Source of the DNA: Defluviitaleaceae bacterium
GTDB taxonomy: Bacteria; Bacillota; Clostridia; Lachnospirales; WQUN01
DNA length: 36,282 nucleotides
Reading direction: 5' to 3'
Assembly (NCBI GenBank): GCA_009782245.1
Contig: WRKK01000360.1
Coordinates: 1 to 36,282 of the forward strand
In this document: positions 2-7,324 of the stretch, one piece after another
Layout of the letters: every line of letters starts with the position of its first letter
Position numbering within the stretch: the stretch's first letter is position 1
Notes under the pieces: generated by a model
Databases searched by the model: none
What the model was told of the DNA's origin: nothing
What the model saw: the letters and a program-made list of their open reading frames with translations, nothing else
Program-made: the position numbers and the translations under genes

Positions 2-325
2 GCGATGCTCCTTGTCTTCTGGGATAATGGGCGTTCCCGTTGCAATAAAATAGTTGACAACTTTGCAAAAATCGCCCGCTTTTTTAAGGCAAGTCATGGT
101 AAAACGGCACAGAATTTTATCGCCGCCGCTTTTCTGCTTGACGTAAAGCAAACCGCAACCAACGCCAGCTTTTACAAGCACTTCTTCCAAATGGATTGCG
201 TTTACTGTGAAAGATGGCTCGTCTGGCGGATTTACGGTAATTGTGCCGTCTTCGGTAAATTGCACGTTGCCTTGCTGTGGTTGACGGCTCATTGTTAGGT
301 CATATTCAAATTTGTAGGTTTTCAT
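2..325 (-). CDS. hypothetical protein, 5' part only (ORF stays open to the left window edge)
   Basis: It is absent from the ORF track because it has no stop inside the window. The reverse strand has ATG at 325-323 after a GAGGT SD (atcgaggtataaaaATG) and reads MKTYKFEYDLTMSRQPQQGNVQFTEDG...CGLLYVKQKSGGDKILCRFTMTCLKKAGDFCKVVNYFIATG, open to base 2. Family not recognised; a vague resemblance to N-terminal extensions of some clostridial ABC exporters is unverified. Confidence 0.5.
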   Translation of the reverse strand, partial: MKTYKFEYDLTMSRQPQQGNVQFTEDGTITVNPPDEPSFTVNAIHLEEVLVKAGVGCGLLYVKQKSGGDKILCRFTMTCLKKAGDFCKVVNYFIATGTPIIPEDKEHR

Positions 326-420
326 TTTTATACCTCGATATAGGAATTACAAGCAACAAGTCCGCACAAATAGCGGACTTATGTTGTTAGTTGTATGGGA
401 TTTTCAGATGCAAAGTCCAA

Positions 421-442
421 TCCCATACAAAACCAGTATATA
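421..442. repeat. 22-bp perfect direct repeat, copy 1 (TCCCATACAAAACCAGTATATA)
   Basis: Identical to 1195-1216. It contains the -10 box and first transcribed bases of a minus-strand promoter. Confidence 0.95.
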
Positions 443-463
443 ACAGCATTGTGCAGTTGTCAA
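435..463 (-). promoter_or_regulatory. sigma-A type promoter for the left-edge gene
   Basis: The minus strand reads TTGACA (463-458), a 17-nt spacer, then TATACT (440-435). Confidence 0.65.
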
Positions 464-504
464 GATATTTCGCAAAATTCGCAGAAATATTTTTCAGCAC
501 AAAA

Positions 505-801
505 CTACAGGGAAAACCCCAGTATTTTAGCAATACCGATAATTCTTTTCTCGCTCTCCTGCATGGCAATATCCGAGCCAACATTAAGATATGGCGTAAT
601 CTCGTGCGTTGCGTCCTCTTCCACCGAAAACAAGCCCAAAGTAACTGAATACTCCCTGCCTTGCAAATATACATCGTCGTTGCTTTCTATTATGCTTGAA
701 AACAGCTTGCCGTCTCCAAAGTTCAAAATTGGTCGGATATACTTGGGCGAATACGATTTGCCTTCAACCGTAAATTCTGCAATGGCTTTGATTTTAATCA
801 T
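505..801 (-). CDS. hypothetical small protein (98 aa), possibly an EF-Tu domain-3-like beta-barrel
   Basis: The ORF starts 9 nt downstream of 811-1149 on the same strand and has a non-repetitive, balanced composition. The pattern Y.P..RP...F......S.I......L..G......L.........L..G......E....IG.A.I resembles translation-factor beta-barrel domains. This is unverified. Confidence 0.6.
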   Translation of the reverse strand: MIKIKAIAEFTVEGKSYSPKYIRPILNFGDGKLFSSIIESNDDVYLQGREYSVTLGLFSVEEDATHEITPYLNVGSDIAMQESEKRIIGIAKILGFSL

Positions 802-810
802 GGTTTCCTC

Positions 811-1149
811 CTACAGTTCGTGTTTTATATTTTTGATTGCACTGTTAAAACAAGGCAAATTGGCGGCTGTGATTATTGCCGTCCCACTTTTGAAGAGATA
901 TGTATCAATGTGGGTAAAATCCGCCAAATTTTGCAACTTAGCCGCATCAATTTCTACCGAAATAATGGCTACAACTTCAACGTTGAACAGCATATCGGCA
1001 AATTTTAAGGTTTCTTCAAAGTTTAGCCCAAAATATTTTACATCAACGCCTAAATTGTGCAAAGAAAATTTTCCTGTTCGCTTTATGGAAAAATATTCTT
1101 CAACGCCCACAGCCCTGTACAATTTTGTTACTGGAAAAAAATTGCTCAT
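811..1149 (-). CDS. hypothetical small protein (112 aa)
   Basis: The ORF has a GGAG-type SD upstream and is served by the promoter at 1209-1237. No family recognised. Confidence 0.6.
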   Translation of the reverse strand: MSNFFPVTKLYRAVGVEEYFSIKRTGKFSLHNLGVDVKYFGLNFEETLKFADMLFNVEVVAIISVEIDAAKLQNLADFTHIDTYLFKSGTAIITAANLPCFNSAIKNIKHEL

Positions 1150-1194
1150 TTTGGTTGGTTCTCCAGATTATTGCGAATTTTTAGGGATAAAACT

Positions 1195-1216
1195 TCCCAT
1201 ACAAAACCAGTATATA
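1195..1216. repeat. 22-bp perfect direct repeat, copy 2
   Basis: Identical to 421-442. Confidence 0.95.
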
Positions 1217-1237
1217 CCGCCATTCCCCATTTGTCAA
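1209..1237 (-). promoter_or_regulatory. sigma-A type promoter for the two-gene cassette 1149->505
   Basis: The minus strand reads TTGACA (1237-1232), a 17-nt spacer, then TATACT (1214-1209). Confidence 0.65.
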
Positions 1238-1241
1238 TCCC

Positions 1242-1266
1242 TTTTGCCAAAATTATTTTGGCAAAA
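1242..1266. promoter_or_regulatory. perfect inverted repeat TTTTGCCAAAA-tta-TTTTGGCAAAA (candidate operator)
   Basis: Two 11-bp arms are separated by a 3-bp spacer. The repeat lies between the -35 of the minus promoter (1232-1237) and overlaps the -35 of the plus promoter (1258-1263). Confidence 0.6.
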
Positions 1267-1286
1267 CCGCCCAATCATGCTATAAT
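1258..1286 (+). promoter_or_regulatory. sigma-A type promoter for the ATPase/nuclease operon
   Basis: TTGGCA (1258-1263), a 17-nt spacer, then TATAAT (1281-1286). Confidence 0.6.
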
Positions 1287-1437
1287 AAAACAAAAACCAG
1301 AGGTAAAACATTGCGAGAACGAAAAAACGGAATGGCAAAAACAGACAAGCAAAGAATTGGCAAAGCAATATCAGCTATACCAACTTTGATAGAAAAAATA
1401 GACCTTAGAGGTCAAGTATACAAGGGGGACTAGTACA

Positions 1438-1632
1438 ATGAATGCAGTCGCACAAATACATGATATAGCCGAAAGGCTAGATAAACCAGAGCAAGAGTTA
1501 GTTTTAGCACTAATGAAAAGGCTATTACCAGACTACATAGCCACCGCCGAAGATATAGCCGATATAGCCAAAGCAAGAGAAGAATACGCACAAGGCAAAA
1601 CAGTAAACTTTGACAACCTTGATTGGGATTGA
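1438..1632 (+). CDS. small helical protein (64 aa), first gene of the operon; antitoxin- or regulator-like size
   Basis: ATG lies 8 nt after the AAGGGGGA SD. The gene ends about 20 nt before the next gene. No DNA-binding motif recognised. Confidence 0.6.
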   Translation: MNAVAQIHDIAERLDKPEQELVLALMKRLLPDYIATAEDIADIAKAREEYAQGKTVNFDNLDWD

Positions 1633-1652
1633 TTAACAGAAAGGGGAATAAA

Positions 1653-2690
1653 ATGACAAATCTTCGTGAAGAGCAAATAAGCCGAATTACAATAAACGGC
1701 TATAAATCAATAAAATCCGCCGATATTAAGCTGGAAAATATTAACGTGCTTATCGGCTGCAACGGTGCGGGCAAATCTAATTTTGTTTCGGTTTTTGAAT
1801 TGTTGCAAGCAAGATTATATGGAAAAACTTGCGAATACGGAATAAAAAAGGGAGCAAGCACTCTATTTTACAACAGTCCAAAAGTTACTGAAAAAATTTT
1901 GTTGCAGTTTTACGATAACGGCGGCATAAATACCACATATAGATTTGGACTGTCCGAGGAAAGTGAACTTATAAATTTGAACCCTACAACAGTTGTTGGA
2001 AATTATTGGGATTCTATAGATAAATATGCGAAATCTCAACGCCAATGGAAAATATACCATTGCAACGATACAAGCCCAATGGCAAAAATCAAGCAAGACA
2101 GCGACATTGCCAACAACGAAATGCTTTTGCAAGATTTTCGCAACTTGTCGGCGTTCTTGTATCGGCTAAAAAACGATTATCCAAAAAATTACGCTGATAT
2201 TGTGCAAACAATTCAACTTATAGCCCCATTTTTTGCGGATTTTGTGCTAATCCCACAAGGAGAACACCAGCAATATATTGTGCTACGTTGGCAAGAAAAA
2301 GCCTTTGAAGATACTTTCTCCGCATCGCAACTATCGGACGGCACATTGCGGTTTATCTGCCTTGCAACCTTACTATTACAGCCGCCAGAATTACAACCAG
2401 CCACAATTATAATTGACGAGCCAGAATTAGGCTTGCACCCTGTTGCAACCACAATTTTTGCGGAATTGGTCAAAAAAGCCGCCACAAACAAGCAAATAAT
2501 TTTGTCAACCCAATCTGTGGAACTGCTAAATCATTTCGCCGTCGAAGATGTTATTGTGGTTGACAGGGACGAAAACGGCTCACAATTTAAGCGGCTAAAC
2601 TCCGCACAGCTTGCGGATTGGCTTGAAGATGATTACACTTTGGGCGATTTGTGGAAGAAAAATATTATCGGCGGGAGGTTTGCACAATGA
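1653..2690 (+). CDS. ABC-type AAA family ATPase (AAA_15/AAA_21, COG4637-like)
   Basis: The preferred start is ATG 1653 after the AAAGGGG SD. Motifs seen: Walker A GCNGAGKSN, signature-like SQLSDGTLRF, Walker B IIIDEPELGLHP, ILSTQS, and the C-terminal LGDLWKKNIIGG typical of this ATPase class. Confidence 0.85.
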   Translation: MTNLREEQISRITINGYKSIKSADIKLENINVLIGCNGAGKSNFVSVFELLQARLYGKTCEYGIKKGASTLFYNSPKVTEKILLQFYDNGGINTTYRFGLSEESELINLNPTTVVGNYWDSIDKYAKSQRQWKIYHCNDTSPMAKIKQDSDIANNEMLLQDFRNLSAFLYRLKNDYPKNYADIVQTIQLIAPFFADFVLIPQGEHQQYIVLRWQEKAFEDTFSASQLSDGTLRFICLATLLLQPPELQPATIIIDEPELGLHPVATTIFAELVKKAATNKQIILSTQSVELLNHFAVEDVIVVDRDENGSQFKRLNSAQLADWLEDDYTLGDLWKKNIIGGRFAQ

Positions 2691-3307
2691 GTCGACTTTT
2701 GGTATACTGTGAGGGTGCAACCGAAGAACTTTTCATTAAAGATGTGCTTGCTCCGTATTTGCTAACTGCAAATATTTACGCAAAGCCGATTGGAGCAGAC
2801 GGTGCAAGCAAATACAGCAAGATAAAAACAGAGTTGACAAAATTAGGCAAAAATGATTCGCAAGCAATAATAACAACAATGTTTGATTATTACGCATTAC
2901 CCAACGAAACGCCAGGCGTTAAAAATGCAACAGGCTCGCTATATGAAAAAATACAGCATATCGAATCCGCCGTTAATACGGATTTAGGATTACCAAACGT
3001 GTTTTTCAACTTGATTGTGCATGAATTTGAGGGATTATTATTTGCAGACACAACCGCATTTGCCGATATTGCAAACGAAACCCAACTTGTAGATTTAGCA
3101 AAAATAAGGCAAAAATTTAATTCGCCAGAGCATATAAATAAATCTTACGAAACTGCTCCGTCAAGGCGTATTTTGGGAATTATTCAAAATTATAGCAAAG
3201 TTTTGGACGGCACAAAAATAGCAAAAATCATTGGAATTAACAAAATTTCGGCGGAATGTCCGCATTTTGCCGATTGGGTTAAAAATATATCCCCCAAGGA
3301 GGAATAA
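2687..3307 (+). CDS. DUF4276-like (Toprim/OLD-nuclease-like) partner protein
   Basis: An ATGA start/stop overlap links it to the ATPase gene. The N-terminus MSRLLVYCEGATEELFIKDVLAPYL matches the conserved EG.tE start of DUF4276 proteins, which are usually encoded next to this ATPase class. Confidence 0.75.
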   Translation: MSRLLVYCEGATEELFIKDVLAPYLLTANIYAKPIGADGASKYSKIKTELTKLGKNDSQAIITTMFDYYALPNETPGVKNATGSLYEKIQHIESAVNTDLGLPNVFFNLIVHEFEGLLFADTTAFADIANETQLVDLAKIRQKFNSPEHINKSYETAPSRRILGIIQNYSKVLDGTKIAKIIGINKISAECPHFADWVKNISPKEE

Positions 3308-3309
3308 AA

Positions 3310-4200
3310 ATGGCAATTATTGGCATAAGCATAAAAAACGTGCTTGCTTTTCAACAGAATTTCACAGCGGATTTTTGCACTGGTATAAATGTAATTATCG
3401 GCGAAAACGGCGTAGGCAAAACAACACTACTAAAAGCCCTTCACGATAGCGAGGATATATATGAAATCAACAGAACAAAGCCAATTCCATCTTTTGGAAA
3501 AGAAGAGGAAAAAAGTTCTGTTTCTCTTGAATGTGCAGGCAAAATTGATTATCAAATATACATCCCAGAAAAAGATATCTTGGAAAACGCCAGAGGATTA
3601 TTACCATTCGTAATGAAAAAAGACACAGCGTTTAGCGATATATACAAAAATGTATTGATTTCAGCACAAGATATACCAACAAGCGAGCAAACCGAAACAC
3701 AACGCTCGCTAGGCGAAAAAATAAGCAACATAATTGGCGGAACTGTCGAATGGGTTGCAAGCGAGGGAACTTATTACACAATAAAAAAAACAGGCTTGCG
3801 AGTGCCTTTTTTACGGGAGGCATCTGGTTATAAAAAACTGGGCTATTTAGGAATACAAATCGCCAGCGGACAACTAGAACCAGGCAGCATACTTTTTTGG
3901 GATGAACCCGAAAATAGCTTAAATCCTGCACTTGCATCACAATTAGTTGACATTTTGCTAGAGCTTTCCCGCAGCGGCGTGCAAATTTTTATTGCAACCC
4001 ACAATGAAGTTTTTGCAAGCTATTTTGCTGTCAACCGCCAAAACGGCGACAACGTTCTGTTTACATCTCTCTACAAAGACGGCGAGGAGATAAAAGCCGA
4101 TACAAGCCACCGTTTCGACTTTCTTACTCCCAACAGCTTAACGGCAGAGCCTGTTAAACTTTACGAAAAACATCTCGAAAAGGGGCTTGGCAATGATTGA
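3310..4200 (+). CDS. second ABC-type AAA family ATPase (296 aa)
   Basis: It starts 2 nt after the previous stop. Motifs seen: Walker A GENGVGKTT, signature-like ASGYKKLGYL, Walker B ILFWDEPENSLNP and an H-loop-like IATHN. Confidence 0.85.
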   Translation: MAIIGISIKNVLAFQQNFTADFCTGINVIIGENGVGKTTLLKALHDSEDIYEINRTKPIPSFGKEEEKSSVSLECAGKIDYQIYIPEKDILENARGLLPFVMKKDTAFSDIYKNVLISAQDIPTSEQTETQRSLGEKISNIIGGTVEWVASEGTYYTIKKTGLRVPFLREASGYKKLGYLGIQIASGQLEPGSILFWDEPENSLNPALASQLVDILLELSRSGVQIFIATHNEVFASYFAVNRQNGDNVLFTSLYKDGEEIKADTSHRFDFLTPNSLTAEPVKLYEKHLEKGLGND

Positions 4201-4723
4201 AATTATTGAAGAAAGTGGCATGAATTTTATTGCCGAAAACGCTTTTTACATTGAAAAATCTCCAATATATGCGGCGTTAAACAAACGTACAAAACAAAAC
4301 GAAAAGGGCATTAGTTCGGTGGAATTTATTCGCCGCAAGGGAGGAAAATTGCTATTTATCGAGGCAAAAACCACTTTTCCCAATCCTGATAATCCGCCAA
4401 AAGAAAATCCCCAGCGATTTGCGGAAGCGGTCGCCGAAATTTGCGAAAAATTTATACATTCGCTAAACTTGTACTATGCCATTTTGGCGGGCGTTCACAG
4501 CGAATCACAAATTAACAATATCAATGCAAGCGACAATTTAACCATTGCATTTGTGCTAGTTATAAAGGTTAGTCAGCCAGACTGGTGCAGAATAATAGAA
4601 ACAAAAATAAATGAAACATTACCAATCTACATAAAAAAAATTTGGGATCCAGAAGTTTTTGTAATGAATCACGAAAAAGCCATAGGGCGAAATCTGGCAA
4701 CCCAAAAAAAGGAAAAACCATGA
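4193..4723 (+). CDS. hypothetical protein (176 aa) with a PD-(D/E)xK-like motif
   Basis: ATG 4193 follows the AAAAGGGG SD and overlaps the upstream stop (ATGATTGA). The segment SSVEFIRRKGGKLLFIEAKT has the E/D...ExK spacing of restriction-endonuclease-fold nucleases. This is an inference. Confidence 0.6.
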   Translation: MIEIIEESGMNFIAENAFYIEKSPIYAALNKRTKQNEKGISSVEFIRRKGGKLLFIEAKTTFPNPDNPPKENPQRFAEAVAEICEKFIHSLNLYYAILAGVHSESQINNINASDNLTIAFVLVIKVSQPDWCRIIETKINETLPIYIKKIWDPEVFVMNHEKAIGRNLATQKKEKP

Positions 4724-4830
4724 GCGACTTAAACACCCAACTATGGGCAAGTGCCGACCAACTGCGCGGCACTTTACGTGAAAGAACACGGAATACCCCA
4801 GCCATGCGGAGCAATTTGCGGTGTTGCTAA
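4720..4830 (+). pseudogene. hsdM: 5' stub of a type I restriction-modification methylase gene
   Basis: An ATGA overlap joins it to the preceding gene. It reads MSDLNTQLWASADQLRGTL, the characteristic HsdM N-terminus (LW..AD.LRG). It then continues as unrelated sequence to a stop after 36 codons. Confidence 0.65.
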
Positions 4831-4847
4831 ATTGACACGAAGACAAT

Positions 4848-4873
4848 GCCTGCCTGACGGTGGTCAGGCAGGC
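4848..4873. terminator. 11-bp stem hairpin between the convergent island operon and the GH3 gene
   Basis: GCCTGCCTGAC-ggtg-GTCAGGCAGGC. There is no clean U-tract on either strand. Confidence 0.45.
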
Positions 4874-4921
4874 CTCCACGAAAACCAAAGACTACCACAA
4901 ATAAAATCCCCATAAACCCCG

Positions 4922-7324
4922 TCAACCAGCCGCCAGCACAAACCGCAAAACGTGCCCCGCAGTCCGTTGCATTTCCGCCAAACTAATGCCGCCCTCTTTG
5001 CCATGCGATTCCAACAAAGAGCCGTCGCCCTCCGTGGCAAAAAAACTTTTTCCGCCTGGCATAAGCAAGTCCACCTGTGCCCGAACCCTGTACGCATCGT
5101 TGAAAACCGCTGGAAAATCGGGGTCAATGCCTGGCCGCATCCACCAATCCGTCATAACAAGCCCCGCAAACTGCCACTCGCCGCGCAATACCGTCGTGCA
5201 TAACTCGTGGTGATAATGCCCGTAAACGCCGTTAATCTTGTTGTACGACGACATTACCGTCCGTGGATTGCTCTCTTTTACGCAAATTTCAAAGCCTTTC
5301 AAATGGATTTCCCGCAAAGCCCGCTCGCTTAGCCGTGAATCGTTCTTTATTCTAAAGGTTTCCTGATCGTTGCAGGCGAAATGCTTGGGACAGCCCGCCA
5401 CGCCCTGCGACTGCAAGCCCACCACAACCGCTGCGCCGATTTTGCCCACCAGCAACGGGTCTTCCGAAAAATATTCAAAATTGCGACCGCACAAAACCGC
5501 ACGCATTACCTGCAAGCCAGGTGCCAACAGCACATGAGCCTTTTTGTCGGCAATTTCTGCACCGTTTTTGGTCGCCAGTTCTTTTACAAGTTGCGTGTTC
5601 CATGTCGCCGCCAACGCTGTTGCACAGGGCAACAATGCACAATAATACCGCAACCGTATACCAGAAGGCCCATCGCAAGCGGTAACGGGTGCAACGCCGT
5701 AATCTCGTAGGGCTTGCGTTGTGCCGCCGAAAACGCCAGCATTGCCCAAAACGCCCAGCGGACTGTTCATTATGTAATCGCCACGTGTCAAGCCCTCCAA
5801 CTCCTCGGCGGTTAGCTGTGCAATAAAATCTTCCAACGAAACCTTGCCAGCCGCAACGTCCACCAACTTGTAGCCCTTATCGCCCGTTTGCGGGATTTCT
5901 TGCGGCAACTGTGCGATAATCCGCTCTTTTAGGTTGACCGTTCGCAACGGAACAGGCTCATATTTTTTCGCAAAAGTGCCGTCCGCTTGCGGTGTGGTCG
6001 CATCTGGGATAAGCCTGTCAAAAGCCGCTACTGGAGCGGCTACTTCCTGCAACTGCTCGACAACCTGCAATTTGTCCACCGTTACCACGCCGATTTTTTT
6101 GGCGGAACGCACACATTGCCCTACAAAAATCCCGTATTCGCCAGGCTCTAGCACATAGGCGGATTTATTGCCCGTTTTGCCGCCGTCATCGTAAGATGCC
6201 ATGCTCGCCGCCGCAAACGAAATTTCCAAGGTCGTTTGCTGTTGCGGTGCTAAAATTTCAGTTTTTTGGAATGCCGCAAGTGCCAAACTCGGCTTACCAA
6301 GCAGTCCCTGCGGTGCGGCGTAATAAACCTGCACAACTTCTTTGCCCGCAAATTTGCCGTTGTTGGCAACTTTTACCGAAATATTAACGTTGCCGTCCTT
6401 TTCAACAGGGTTTTCCGCCGAAATCGCAAAATCCGCATAACTAAGCCCAAATCCAAACGGGAACAGAACATCATTTTTCGCAAACGTCTCAAAATAGCGG
6501 TAGCCCACGTAAATATCTTCCACGTAATTATTGAACTCCTCCGCGCCGAAGTTTTCGTAGGTTGGATAGTTTTCGTAACGCTTGGCGATGGTGGTTGTAA
6601 GTTTGCCGCTGGGGCTGATTTCGCCGTAAAGTGCGTCCGCAACGGCGTTTCCGCTCTCCATGCCGCCCTGCCACACGTACAGCAACGCATTTATTTTGGA
6701 TTCATATTTTTCTAGCCACGAAAAATCTATGATATTTCCGCTGTTTATCAGCACTACAACCTTGCTAAAGGCAGCTGTTACCAAATCTAACATTTGCAAT
6801 TCCTGTTTCGTAAGGAAAAAACTTCCCTCTTCAAGCAAGCTGTCCCTGTCTTCGCCAGCACTGCGCCCAATCACGACAACCGCCGTATCCGAGACCGCCG
6901 CCGCATTTTTCACAAGTTCGGCGGTCAGCGGCATTTCGGCAAAGTTGGTTGGCCACTTGCCCCATTCGCCCGTTTCTGGCACGTTTTCGCCGCACCATTT
7001 GCGGTAAATCTCGCAAAGTTCCTTGTTGTAGCTTGCCCCTTTTTTGGCGGACATTGCAGAAATGCCGTCCATTAGGCTGATTCTGTACGGCGGAATGACA
7101 TCGCCGCCAGAGCCGTAACCAACGTAAAAATAATCATGCTGCACCCTGCCAAAAACCGAGATGTTATCGTTAAGCGGCAAAACGCCGTCATTTTTCAGCA
7201 AAACGATTCCCTCGCCAGCCGCTTTGCGGCACAACGCCTTGTAATCTTCCGCCAATTCCCTTGAACCCAGCACCTGCACAGAATCATTGTGCGTATCTTG
7301 TGCCAATAAGTTTTGTTCGTCCAT
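4922..7324 (-). CDS. glycoside hydrolase family 3 (beta-glucosidase-like)
   Basis: 800-aa ORF. GH3 motifs seen: KHFACNDQETFR, and GLVMTDWW holding the nucleophile Asp. The C-terminal part looks like a sandwich/FnIII-type domain. A strong AGGAGGA SD precedes it. Confidence 0.9.
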   Translation of the reverse strand: MDEQNLLAQDTHNDSVQVLGSRELAEDYKALCRKAAGEGIVLLKNDGVLPLNDNISVFGRVQHDYFYVGYGSGGDVIPPYRISLMDGISAMSAKKGASYNKELCEIYRKWCGENVPETGEWGKWPTNFAEMPLTAELVKNAAAVSDTAVVVIGRSAGEDRDSLLEEGSFFLTKQELQMLDLVTAAFSKVVVLINSGNIIDFSWLEKYESKINALLYVWQGGMESGNAVADALYGEISPSGKLTTTIAKRYENYPTYENFGAEEFNNYVEDIYVGYRYFETFAKNDVLFPFGFGLSYADFAISAENPVEKDGNVNISVKVANNGKFAGKEVVQVYYAAPQGLLGKPSLALAAFQKTEILAPQQQTTLEISFAAASMASYDDGGKTGNKSAYVLEPGEYGIFVGQCVRSAKKIGVVTVDKLQVVEQLQEVAAPVAAFDRLIPDATTPQADGTFAKKYEPVPLRTVNLKERIIAQLPQEIPQTGDKGYKLVDVAAGKVSLEDFIAQLTAEELEGLTRGDYIMNSPLGVLGNAGVFGGTTQALRDYGVAPVTACDGPSGIRLRYYCALLPCATALAATWNTQLVKELATKNGAEIADKKAHVLLAPGLQVMRAVLCGRNFEYFSEDPLLVGKIGAAVVVGLQSQGVAGCPKHFACNDQETFRIKNDSRLSERALREIHLKGFEICVKESNPRTVMSSYNKINGVYGHYHHELCTTVLRGEWQFAGLVMTDWWMRPGIDPDFPAVFNDAYRVRAQVDLLMPGGKSFFATEGDGSLLESHGKEGGISLAEMQRTAGHVLRFVLAAG

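Follow-up and report, generated by a model that had tools for sequence, protein, structure and literature searches.

We analysed a 36,282-nucleotide (nt) stretch of contig WRKK01000360.1 from a Defluviitaleaceae bacterium (assembly GCA_009782245.1), referred to hereafter as the window, which originates from a termite-gut metagenome, and within it a block of five plus-strand genes, g1 to g5, spanning positions 1438-4723. The first of these, g1 (1438-1632), is preceded by the Shine-Dalgarno sequence AAGGGGG and codes for a protein of 64 amino acids (aa). After a 20-nt gap it is followed by g2 (1653-2690, ATG at 1653), which encodes a 345-aa ABC-type ATPase of the AAA_15/AAA_21 kind, and g2 in turn shares an ATGA overlap with g3 (2687-3307), whose 206-aa product is a DUF4276 protein with an OLD-like Toprim fold and a presumed nuclease effector. 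A gap of only 2 nt separates g3 from g4 (3310-4200), coding for a second, short ABC-type ATPase of 296 aa, and the end of g4 overlaps by 8 nt (ATGATTGA) with g5 (4193-4723), which encodes a 176-aa putative NERD-like PD-(D/E)xK protein, again a presumed nuclease effector. These are the same five genes and the same four junctions as in an annotation made earlier from the nucleotide sequence (the original prediction). A sixth start codon at 4720 is coupled to g5 by another ATGA overlap and opens a 36-codon open reading frame (ORF), the first 19 residues of which are the N-terminus of HsdM. Each of the starts has a Shine-Dalgarno-like motif 8-9 nt upstream. The guanine-plus-cytosine (GC) content of 0.37-0.40 across g1-g5 sets the block apart from the adjacent GH3 and MatE genes, at 0.50-0.51.

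Each of the two ATPase-nuclease pairs can be assigned to a named system. In searches against PADLOC-DB v2, g2 matched HEC-01A (PDLC04175, E 3.1e-119, 396 bits) and g3 matched HEC-01B (PDLC04188, E 1.5e-67), and Pfam placed g2 in AAA_21 (1.5e-30) and AAA_15 (2.4e-16), and g3 in DUF4276 (7.9e-48) and no other family. The Walker A, signature, Walker B and H-loop elements of g2 are all intact, with GxNGxGKS, LSDGT, DEPELGLHP and T-Q-S all at positions invariant in 50 homologues. The AlphaFold2 (AF2) model of g3, with a pLDDT score (predicted local distance difference test) of 95, finds its top PDB fold match in Xanthomonas OLD, at the Toprim region of the C-terminus (6njv; E 1.8e-5, probability 1.0), and the retron Eco8 effector is also among the fold matches. 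Conserved residues in g3 are E9, G10 and E13 following strand 1, D67 following strand 3, and H112-E113-x-E115. A HEC-01 locus is defined by the A profile and an adjacent B-profile protein of Toprim fold, and g2/g3 possess both. As a side observation, the H-loop of HEC-01A (g2 residues 286-288, window positions ~2508-2516) is T-Q-S in 50/50 homologues, Gln replacing the usual ABC His; HEC-02A retains T-H.

The second pair corresponds to HEC-02, with g4 matching HEC-02A (PDLC04213, E 1.1e-68) and g5 matching HEC-02B (PDLC04221, E 6.6e-35) of the same database. Pfam assigned g4 to AAA_21 (7e-22) and AAA_15 (8.8e-19), and its catalytic motifs (Walker A GxNGxGKT, ASGYK, DEPE and T-H) are intact and conserved in 8 homologues. 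The Pfam and PADLOC results thus agree with the original prediction in classing g2 and g4 as ATPases and g3 as DUF4276. An alignment of 43 relatives shows E21, E57-A58-K59 and K86 to be invariant in g5 and its family, with E44 conserved in at least 90%; judging from the alignment, these residues form the classic E...E...ExK arrangement. The AF2 model of g5 (pLDDT 92) yields a PDB fold list headed by FokI, Mus81, BspD6I, Shedu, OkrAI and Hjc, and the top matches, although weak (E ≥0.048, template modelling score ≤0.40), are all PD-(D/E)xK nucleases. Both the family-invariant E57-A-K59 and this restriction of the weak fold matches to one nuclease superfamily speak for the PD-(D/E)xK-like nature ascribed to g5 beforehand. 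The features that define HEC-02, a HEC-02A profile and an adjacent HEC-02B profile with a (D/E/Q)xK motif, are found together in g4/g5.

HEC systems, named as Hma-embedded candidates (HEC-01 being candidate 01), were described as cassettes that sit among the genes of Hma systems (Payne, Hughes, Fineran & Jackson 2024, bioRxiv 10.1101/2024.01.29.577857). In the same work, HEC-01 was defined as an ABC ATPase with a TOPRIM protein and HEC-02 as an ABC ATPase with a NERD-like PD-(D/E)xK protein; HEC-02 reduced plaquing in Escherichia coli by orders of magnitude, with both genes being required; type I restriction-modification (R-M), BREX and DISARM loci were found often to hold embedded cassettes as well; and HEC systems were mostly found outside host systems, as autonomous units (bioRxiv 10.1101/2024.01.29.577857). 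More recently, a HEC-01 system from a cold seep gave E. coli B protection from one or more of the phages T4, T5 and T7 (2026 Nat Commun, PMC12881386). DUF4276 belongs to the Toprim superfamily; it is Mad4 of MADS and, in some NsnC proteins of Menshen, forms the effector domain at the C-terminus (PMC12065111); it also features in the AAA15/21 phylogeny of the PARIS paper. The block is not an unnamed system, since PADLOC-DB names both HEC-01 and HEC-02, and with HEC-02 it matches a system that has been validated experimentally, an outcome that the original prediction had itself listed as refuting it. Similarly, the view of the AAA/DUF4276 pair as uncharacterised is out of date, as HEC-01 has been assayed twice, with one negative and one positive outcome, and DUF4276 is part of MADS and Menshen. 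We conclude that the two pairs are already-named cassettes, of the type reported by Payne et al. as embedded in operons of Hma, type I R-M, BREX and DISARM.

Transcription of the block would start from a sigma-70-like promoter, TTGGCA-17-TATAAT with a TG-extended -10 element (1258-1286, plus strand, 11/12 matches), which is the top plus-strand promoter-like site within 300-5100 and the presumed promoter of the operon. Promoter-like sites in this region (14 observed vs 11.8 expected) are in total not above chance, and therefore only the quality and the position of the 1258-1286 site count. No plus-strand terminator-like sites were found within 1438-4723, and we infer that the five genes are co-transcribed. 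A 25-nt palindrome, TTTTGCCAAAAT-T-ATTTTGGCAAAA, with 12-nt arms and a central T, is located at 1242-1266, between two divergent promoters, and overlaps the -35 hexamer of the plus-strand one. It is present as a single copy in the window, with 0 copies expected by chance, and can be regarded as a candidate operator. The original prediction had called the promoter palindrome-controlled; the palindrome is real and unique within the window, while the control is conjectural.

The opposite promoter-like sequence, TTGACA-17-TATACT (1209-1237, minus strand, 11/12 matches), would drive a divergent pair of genes coding for 112 aa (811-1149) and 98 aa (505-801). It is contained in one copy of a 57-nt direct repeat, D1 (421-477 and 1195-1251, 77% identity), each copy of which holds such a near-consensus minus-strand promoter (463..435 and 1237..1209, 11/12 matches in both). 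The 1195-1251 copy precedes the minus-strand pair just mentioned, and the 421-477 copy lies ahead of a minus-strand gene that is cut by the start of the window and codes for at least 123 aa. Searches of Pfam, PADLOC and NCBIfam returned no match for the 98-aa, 112-aa and 123-aa proteins. Logan unitigs of the only run with this sequence branch at 248-277, where a variant unitig (depth 37 vs 90) departs from the sequence within this truncated gene. The branch is the probable reason for the end of the contig, 44 nt to the left of window position 1. As a consequence of the contig end and the branch, the left edge of the island cannot be seen.

At its 3' end, the block runs into the remnant of a type I R-M operon. 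When HsdM proteins from three relatives of the locus (L024, L027 and L032) were used as tblastn queries, an hsdM pseudogene remnant was detected at 4720-4850 on the plus strand, in two pieces and two frames. The first piece comprises codons 1-19 (4720-4776, 68-74% identity), in frame and ATGA-coupled to g5, and the second comprises codons ~52-74 (4782-4850, 37-57% identity) in a different frame, with ~32 codons missing between the two and everything past residue ~74 deleted. A weak MTase_I match in PADLOC-DB agrees with this. The original prediction, in which the block had once been continuous with a gene of type I R-M, is supported on this point. No HsdS or HsdR match was found by tblastn anywhere in the 36-kb window, and the intact hsdM, hsdS and hsdR genes of a type I R-M system are not present together in it. 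The hsdM homology stops at a GC-rich hairpin (4848-4873, minus strand, 11-bp stem with 8 GC pairs), located 3' of a convergent GH3 gene (4922-7324, minus strand, GC 0.51) and marking the right edge of the low-GC island. The remaining window is ordinary chromosome, with GH3, MatE, AAA ATPase, sulfatase, flagellin, GH2, Mfd and MCP genes.

With such a scar, the whole block could be a decaying and functionally silent relic, in which the HEC genes are no longer selected and simply not yet disabled. Both flanks (the 5' one is discussed below) are indeed pseudogenised, and the proteins of the window are ≤51-65% identical to anything in the databases searched, so that there is no population evidence of purifying selection. 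However, none of the four HEC ORFs is truncated, they have kept their translational coupling and Shine-Dalgarno sites, every family-invariant catalytic residue that was checked is intact, the promoter-like site scores 11/12, and HEC systems mostly exist outside host systems as autonomous units. We therefore regard a silent relic as unlikely.

Relatives of both pairs, the neighbours of which were typed by Pfam, are nested in defence operons. In one of them HEC-01 is placed between hsdM and hsdS (hsdR-hsdM-HEC-01A-HEC-01B-hsdS in L027), in two others hsdM is directly 5' of HEC-01 (L024 and L032), and a fourth has the order hsdM-hsdS-hsdR-HEC-01 (L029). HEC-01 also occurs in the arrangements SNF2-HEC-01-N6_N4 methylase-RhuM-ResIII (L051) and ResIII-HEC-01-JetABC (L073). 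HEC-02 adjoins SNF2, methylase and ResIII genes in one locus (L094), and in another (L003/L002) it is found between a ResIII helicase and an MNT/HEPN pair with a 990-aa methylase, an Hma-like arrangement. This Hma-like system holds two embedded cassettes and is therefore a further case of stacking. The stacked arrangement of HEC-01 and HEC-02 described here is unusual yet unsurprising. Two side observations can be added. The Hma-like locus (L003:5925-10835 and L002:1-4883) belongs to a Spirochaetia metagenome-assembled genome (MAG), with the ResIII helicase, HEC-02A/B, the MNT/HEPN pair and the N6_N4 methylase in one string. In a termite-gut relative (L017:1464-3214), HEC-01A-HEC-01B is found within a housekeeping operon, preceded by cysS and mini-RNase III and followed by SpoU/RlmB methyltransferase and YacP NYN genes, and so the cassette also inserts outside defence loci.

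The original prediction had described the two pairs as fused into one operon; they are not fused into one system, and in all other loci surveyed they are independent of each other. A metagenome scan with a DUF4276 alignment produced 80 HEC-01 loci, 36 of them with at least 1.5 kb of downstream sequence. A HEC-01A homologue is directly upstream of HEC-01B in 77/80, usually with the same 4-nt overlap, the other 3 being cut by contig ends, and homologues of g4, g5 or g1 are present in none of the 80. From the opposite side, databases contain 49 relatives of g5, all ≤51% identical to it, and ~11 distinct HEC-02 loci were surveyed (L002-L010 and L093-L097); HEC-02A is directly upstream of HEC-02B in every one of these, with DUF4276 or HEC-01 in none. 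A scan of genome contigs revealed 4 HEC-02B loci, 3 in MAGs with isolate or contig labels that match those of termite-gut metagenome contigs and 1 in a Planctomycetales genome. In PLSDB, g5 matched 1 record and g3 matched 13, with no record common to both, and no g5 (HEC-02B) relative was present among IMG/VR viral contigs. Because surveys from both sides lack co-occurrence, the tandem of HEC-01 and HEC-02 is a one-off among all reachable data, and the rarity that had been claimed for a doubled arrangement is real. We conclude that the HEC-01 and HEC-02 pairs behave as independent modules.

It may still be that in this particular genome the tandem has been retained as a co-transcribed and translationally coupled two-layer module, in which the pairs cooperate and the antitoxin-like g1 was recruited as a regulator after loss of the R-M genes. 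One pair might, for example, serve as a guard in case phage inhibitors block its neighbour, or the two might act in synergy, as reported for some co-occurring systems; we consider such cooperation quite unlikely. Similarly unlikely is one integrated four-component machine with mutually dependent pairs, in which one pair senses and the other executes, or in which the two ATPases hetero-oligomerise. The tight 2-nt spacing between g3 and g4, a single promoter-like site with no internal terminators and the similar GC content of all four genes would be compatible with it. These features are countered by the absence of HEC-02 from the 80 HEC-01 loci, of HEC-01 from the ~11 HEC-02 loci and of both pairs together from any plasmid record, by the ability of HEC-02 to function alone in E. 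coli, by the restriction of the g2-g4 similarity to Walker motifs, and by the fact that close packing is normal for stacked cassettes within R-M operons; on the synteny of HEC-01 and HEC-02 and the plasmid records we rejected a single four-gene system. A recent duplication of one ATPase-nuclease pair was likewise rejected, since g2 and g4 align solely at the Walker A and Walker B segments and the effector folds differ.

The 5' side of the block carries a second scar. Just upstream of g1, the last ~14 codons and the stop codon of a RelE/HigB-like toxin gene (...EKIDLRGQVYKGD*) are preserved at 1385-1433 on the plus strand, as detected by tblastx and blastn against another contig (L091). There, the single close homologue of g1 (66% identity) is found directly after a 60-aa ORF, ...YRLREGNWRIIFSW...EKIDLRGQVYKGV, the end of which is 81% identical to the remnant over 16 codons (tblastx); blastn homology between the two begins at window position 1385, and the spacer between toxin ORF and g1 is 4-5 nt in both. 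This L091 ORF has a weak HigB-like Pfam match, and 8/9 of its PDB sequence matches are RelE/HigB toxins (best RelE3, E 0.021; HigB, E 0.2-0.3). The toxin-like ORF and the g1 homologue of L091 are flanked by a metallo-beta-lactamase-fold gene and a GNAT gene, and no ATPase gene is close by. The 64-aa product of g1 is helical and belongs to a small family of 56 representative clusters, all ~65 aa (64-66 aa), and it was placed in no named family by Pfam, NCBIfam, a PDB profile search or an exhaustive HMMER search. Homology to the toxin-antitoxin (TA) locus begins within the last codons of the toxin, and so g1 arrived with the toxin; from the toxin stump 5' of g1, it follows that a 5' deletion removed the toxin and kept its downstream partner. 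An intact toxin gene beside an antitoxin gene, as in a RelE/HigB-type TA module, is not found in the window. The most fitting interpretation of g1 is that it held the antitoxin position in a TA module, now decayed, and is not a HEC-01 component; on this point the original prediction, which had listed it with the two pairs, is not supported.

That g1 is instead a dedicated small regulator or accessory subunit of a HEC operon, such as a repressor acting at the 1242-1266 palindrome, would suit its position as the first gene, 20 nt 5' of g2 and just 3' of the palindrome-bearing promoter, but is highly improbable given that its homologues occur in neither the 80 HEC-01 loci nor the HEC-02 loci, that its only close homologue follows a RelE/HigB-like ORF away from any ATPase, that the homology starts inside the toxin's last codons and that no DNA-binding family was detected in it. 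On the grounds of this lack of co-occurrence and the TA-remnant homology, g1 was discarded as a HEC component or regulator.

Taken together, it is likely that the block consists of four separate units joined in one transcription unit, namely a TA remnant, HEC-01, HEC-02 and an hsdM stump. What the analysis shows is the gene structure, the family membership, the Toprim fold of g3 and the PD-(D/E)xK signature of g5, the intact motifs, the separate occurrence of the two pairs elsewhere and the gene remnants on either flank. Several points weigh against this reading. The genes 5' of the promoter are small minus-strand genes without known family and not R-M genes, and the left side of the island is out of view, with the contig ending so close to the window start, so that embedding is apparent at the hsdM side only. 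A run search located the sequence in one DNA run only and in no RNA run, so that co-transcription and activity of the block are putative. The RelE/HigB assignment is based on weak matches (E 0.02-0.4) and one 1.5-kb contig. A Pfam search with g5 matched no family, NERD included, and no single fold match of g5 is significant (best E 0.048). The HEC-01 representative of Payne et al. gave no protection (bioRxiv 10.1101/2024.01.29.577857), and the function of HEC-01 is therefore thinly supported. Finally, with both flanks decayed, the intact-looking pairs might be heading for loss too.

We suggest the following history for the locus. Within a type I R-M operon, HEC-01 and HEC-02 cassettes would have been stacked 5' of hsdM. 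A later deletion would have taken the R-M genes, with the cassettes remaining as a low-GC island beside core chromosomal genes. On the other side, the toxin of a TA module was presumably deleted down to its last ~14 codons, with g1 as the surviving antitoxin-side gene. As to function, analogy with PARIS, OLD and Gabija, together with the genetics of HEC-02, suggests that in each pair a dimer or oligomer of the ABC ATPase would act as sensor and scaffold and keep its cognate nuclease inactive. A phage cue could then lead to ATP binding or hydrolysis by the ATPase, and thereby to release or activation of the nuclease, after which the Toprim (HEC-01) or PD-(D/E)xK (HEC-02) enzyme would cut nucleic acid and the infection would be aborted or blocked. 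The sensing step and the nuclease substrates in this scheme, like the order of the decay events, are putative. Two pairs of this kind would broaden the range of phages, rather than form a four-protein machine.

In principle, the locus adds little: although neatly arranged, it is a commonplace part of a defence island, and no new system. It does represent a clean natural case of the embedded defence cassette idea, in which a type I R-M operon was probably host to two stacked cassettes and was outlived by them. It also makes available, for testing, divergent HEC-01 and HEC-02 representatives from the termite gut; for HEC-01 in particular experimental support is still thin. Furthermore, unrelated modules and gene stumps can together make up a tight, translationally coupled operon, and therefore its first gene should not be presumed to be part of the system that follows.

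The general logic of an ATPase paired with a nuclease, which had been likened to OLD and PARIS in the original prediction, does hold for both pairs, and several known systems can be compared with them on that basis. PrrC and RloA-RloB-RloC are likewise ATPase-nuclease genes nested in type I R-M operons, possibly as a back-up once restriction is blocked. In our locus, however, there is no RloB (PF13707) and no PrrC anticodon-nuclease domain, and the R-M partner is a pseudogene stump. OLD, Gabija GajA and the retron Eco8 effector share the N-terminal ATPase motifs, and the g3 Toprim fold is nearest to the C-terminal region of Xanthomonas OLD. In those proteins, though, ATPase and nuclease are fused, while here they are separate polypeptides; matches of the present ATPases to the OLD and GajA profiles are confined to the N-terminal P-loop segment, and the locus has neither the UvrD-like GajB of Gabija nor a reverse transcriptase as in retron Eco8. 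In PADLOC-DB, the AriA, AbiLi, Old, GajA, PtuA and mad3 profiles all gave far weaker matches, generic to the ATPase. MADS has an AAA ATPase (Mad3) and a DUF4276 protein (Mad4), like g2/g3. Yet g2 scored only 106 bits against the NCBIfam antiphage_MADS3 model (NF047739), for which the cut-off is 420, and beyond the hsdM stump the window contains no methyltransferase and no other mad genes.

PARIS has an ABC ATPase, AriA, that acts as a scaffold for its Toprim nuclease, AriB, and the logic shared with HEC-01 is that of an AAA_15/21 ABC ATPase serving as sensor and scaffold for a separate Toprim-fold effector. The two differ in that the g3 effector is DUF4276 and not DUF4435, with no match to the AriB profile, and in that AriA profile matches are weak and of a generic AAA_21 type (1e-28 for g2 and 7e-23 for g4, vs 3.1e-119 for g2 with HEC-01A); no trigger or tRNA target is known for the present pair. 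By analogy, PARIS provides the best mechanistic model for HEC-01.

The closest agreement is with the HEC systems themselves. The g4/g5 pair shares with HEC-02 the two-gene order, an 8-nt overlap conserved in relatives, strong matches to both PADLOC profiles and the (D/E)xK motif, here E57-A-K59. It differs in being only 34-57% identical to its relatives and in belonging to a short-ATPase subtype (296 aa) known almost only from termite-gut metagenomes, with Pfam NERD undetected in g5 by sequence. The g2/g3 pair shares with HEC-01 an ABC ATPase (AAA_15/21) followed by a DUF4276/Toprim gene, the 4-nt ATGA overlap, very strong matches to both PADLOC profiles and the presence of relatives inside type I R-M and other R-M-like operons. 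Its nearest relatives are ≤65% (g3) and ~66% (g2) identical, the g2 ATPase is ~20 residues shorter than most HEC-01A proteins, and this copy is directly followed by a second system, with its R-M host deleted. We conclude that the HEC-01 and HEC-02 described here are divergent members of two systems already known, which were probably stacked within a type I R-M operon that has since decayed.

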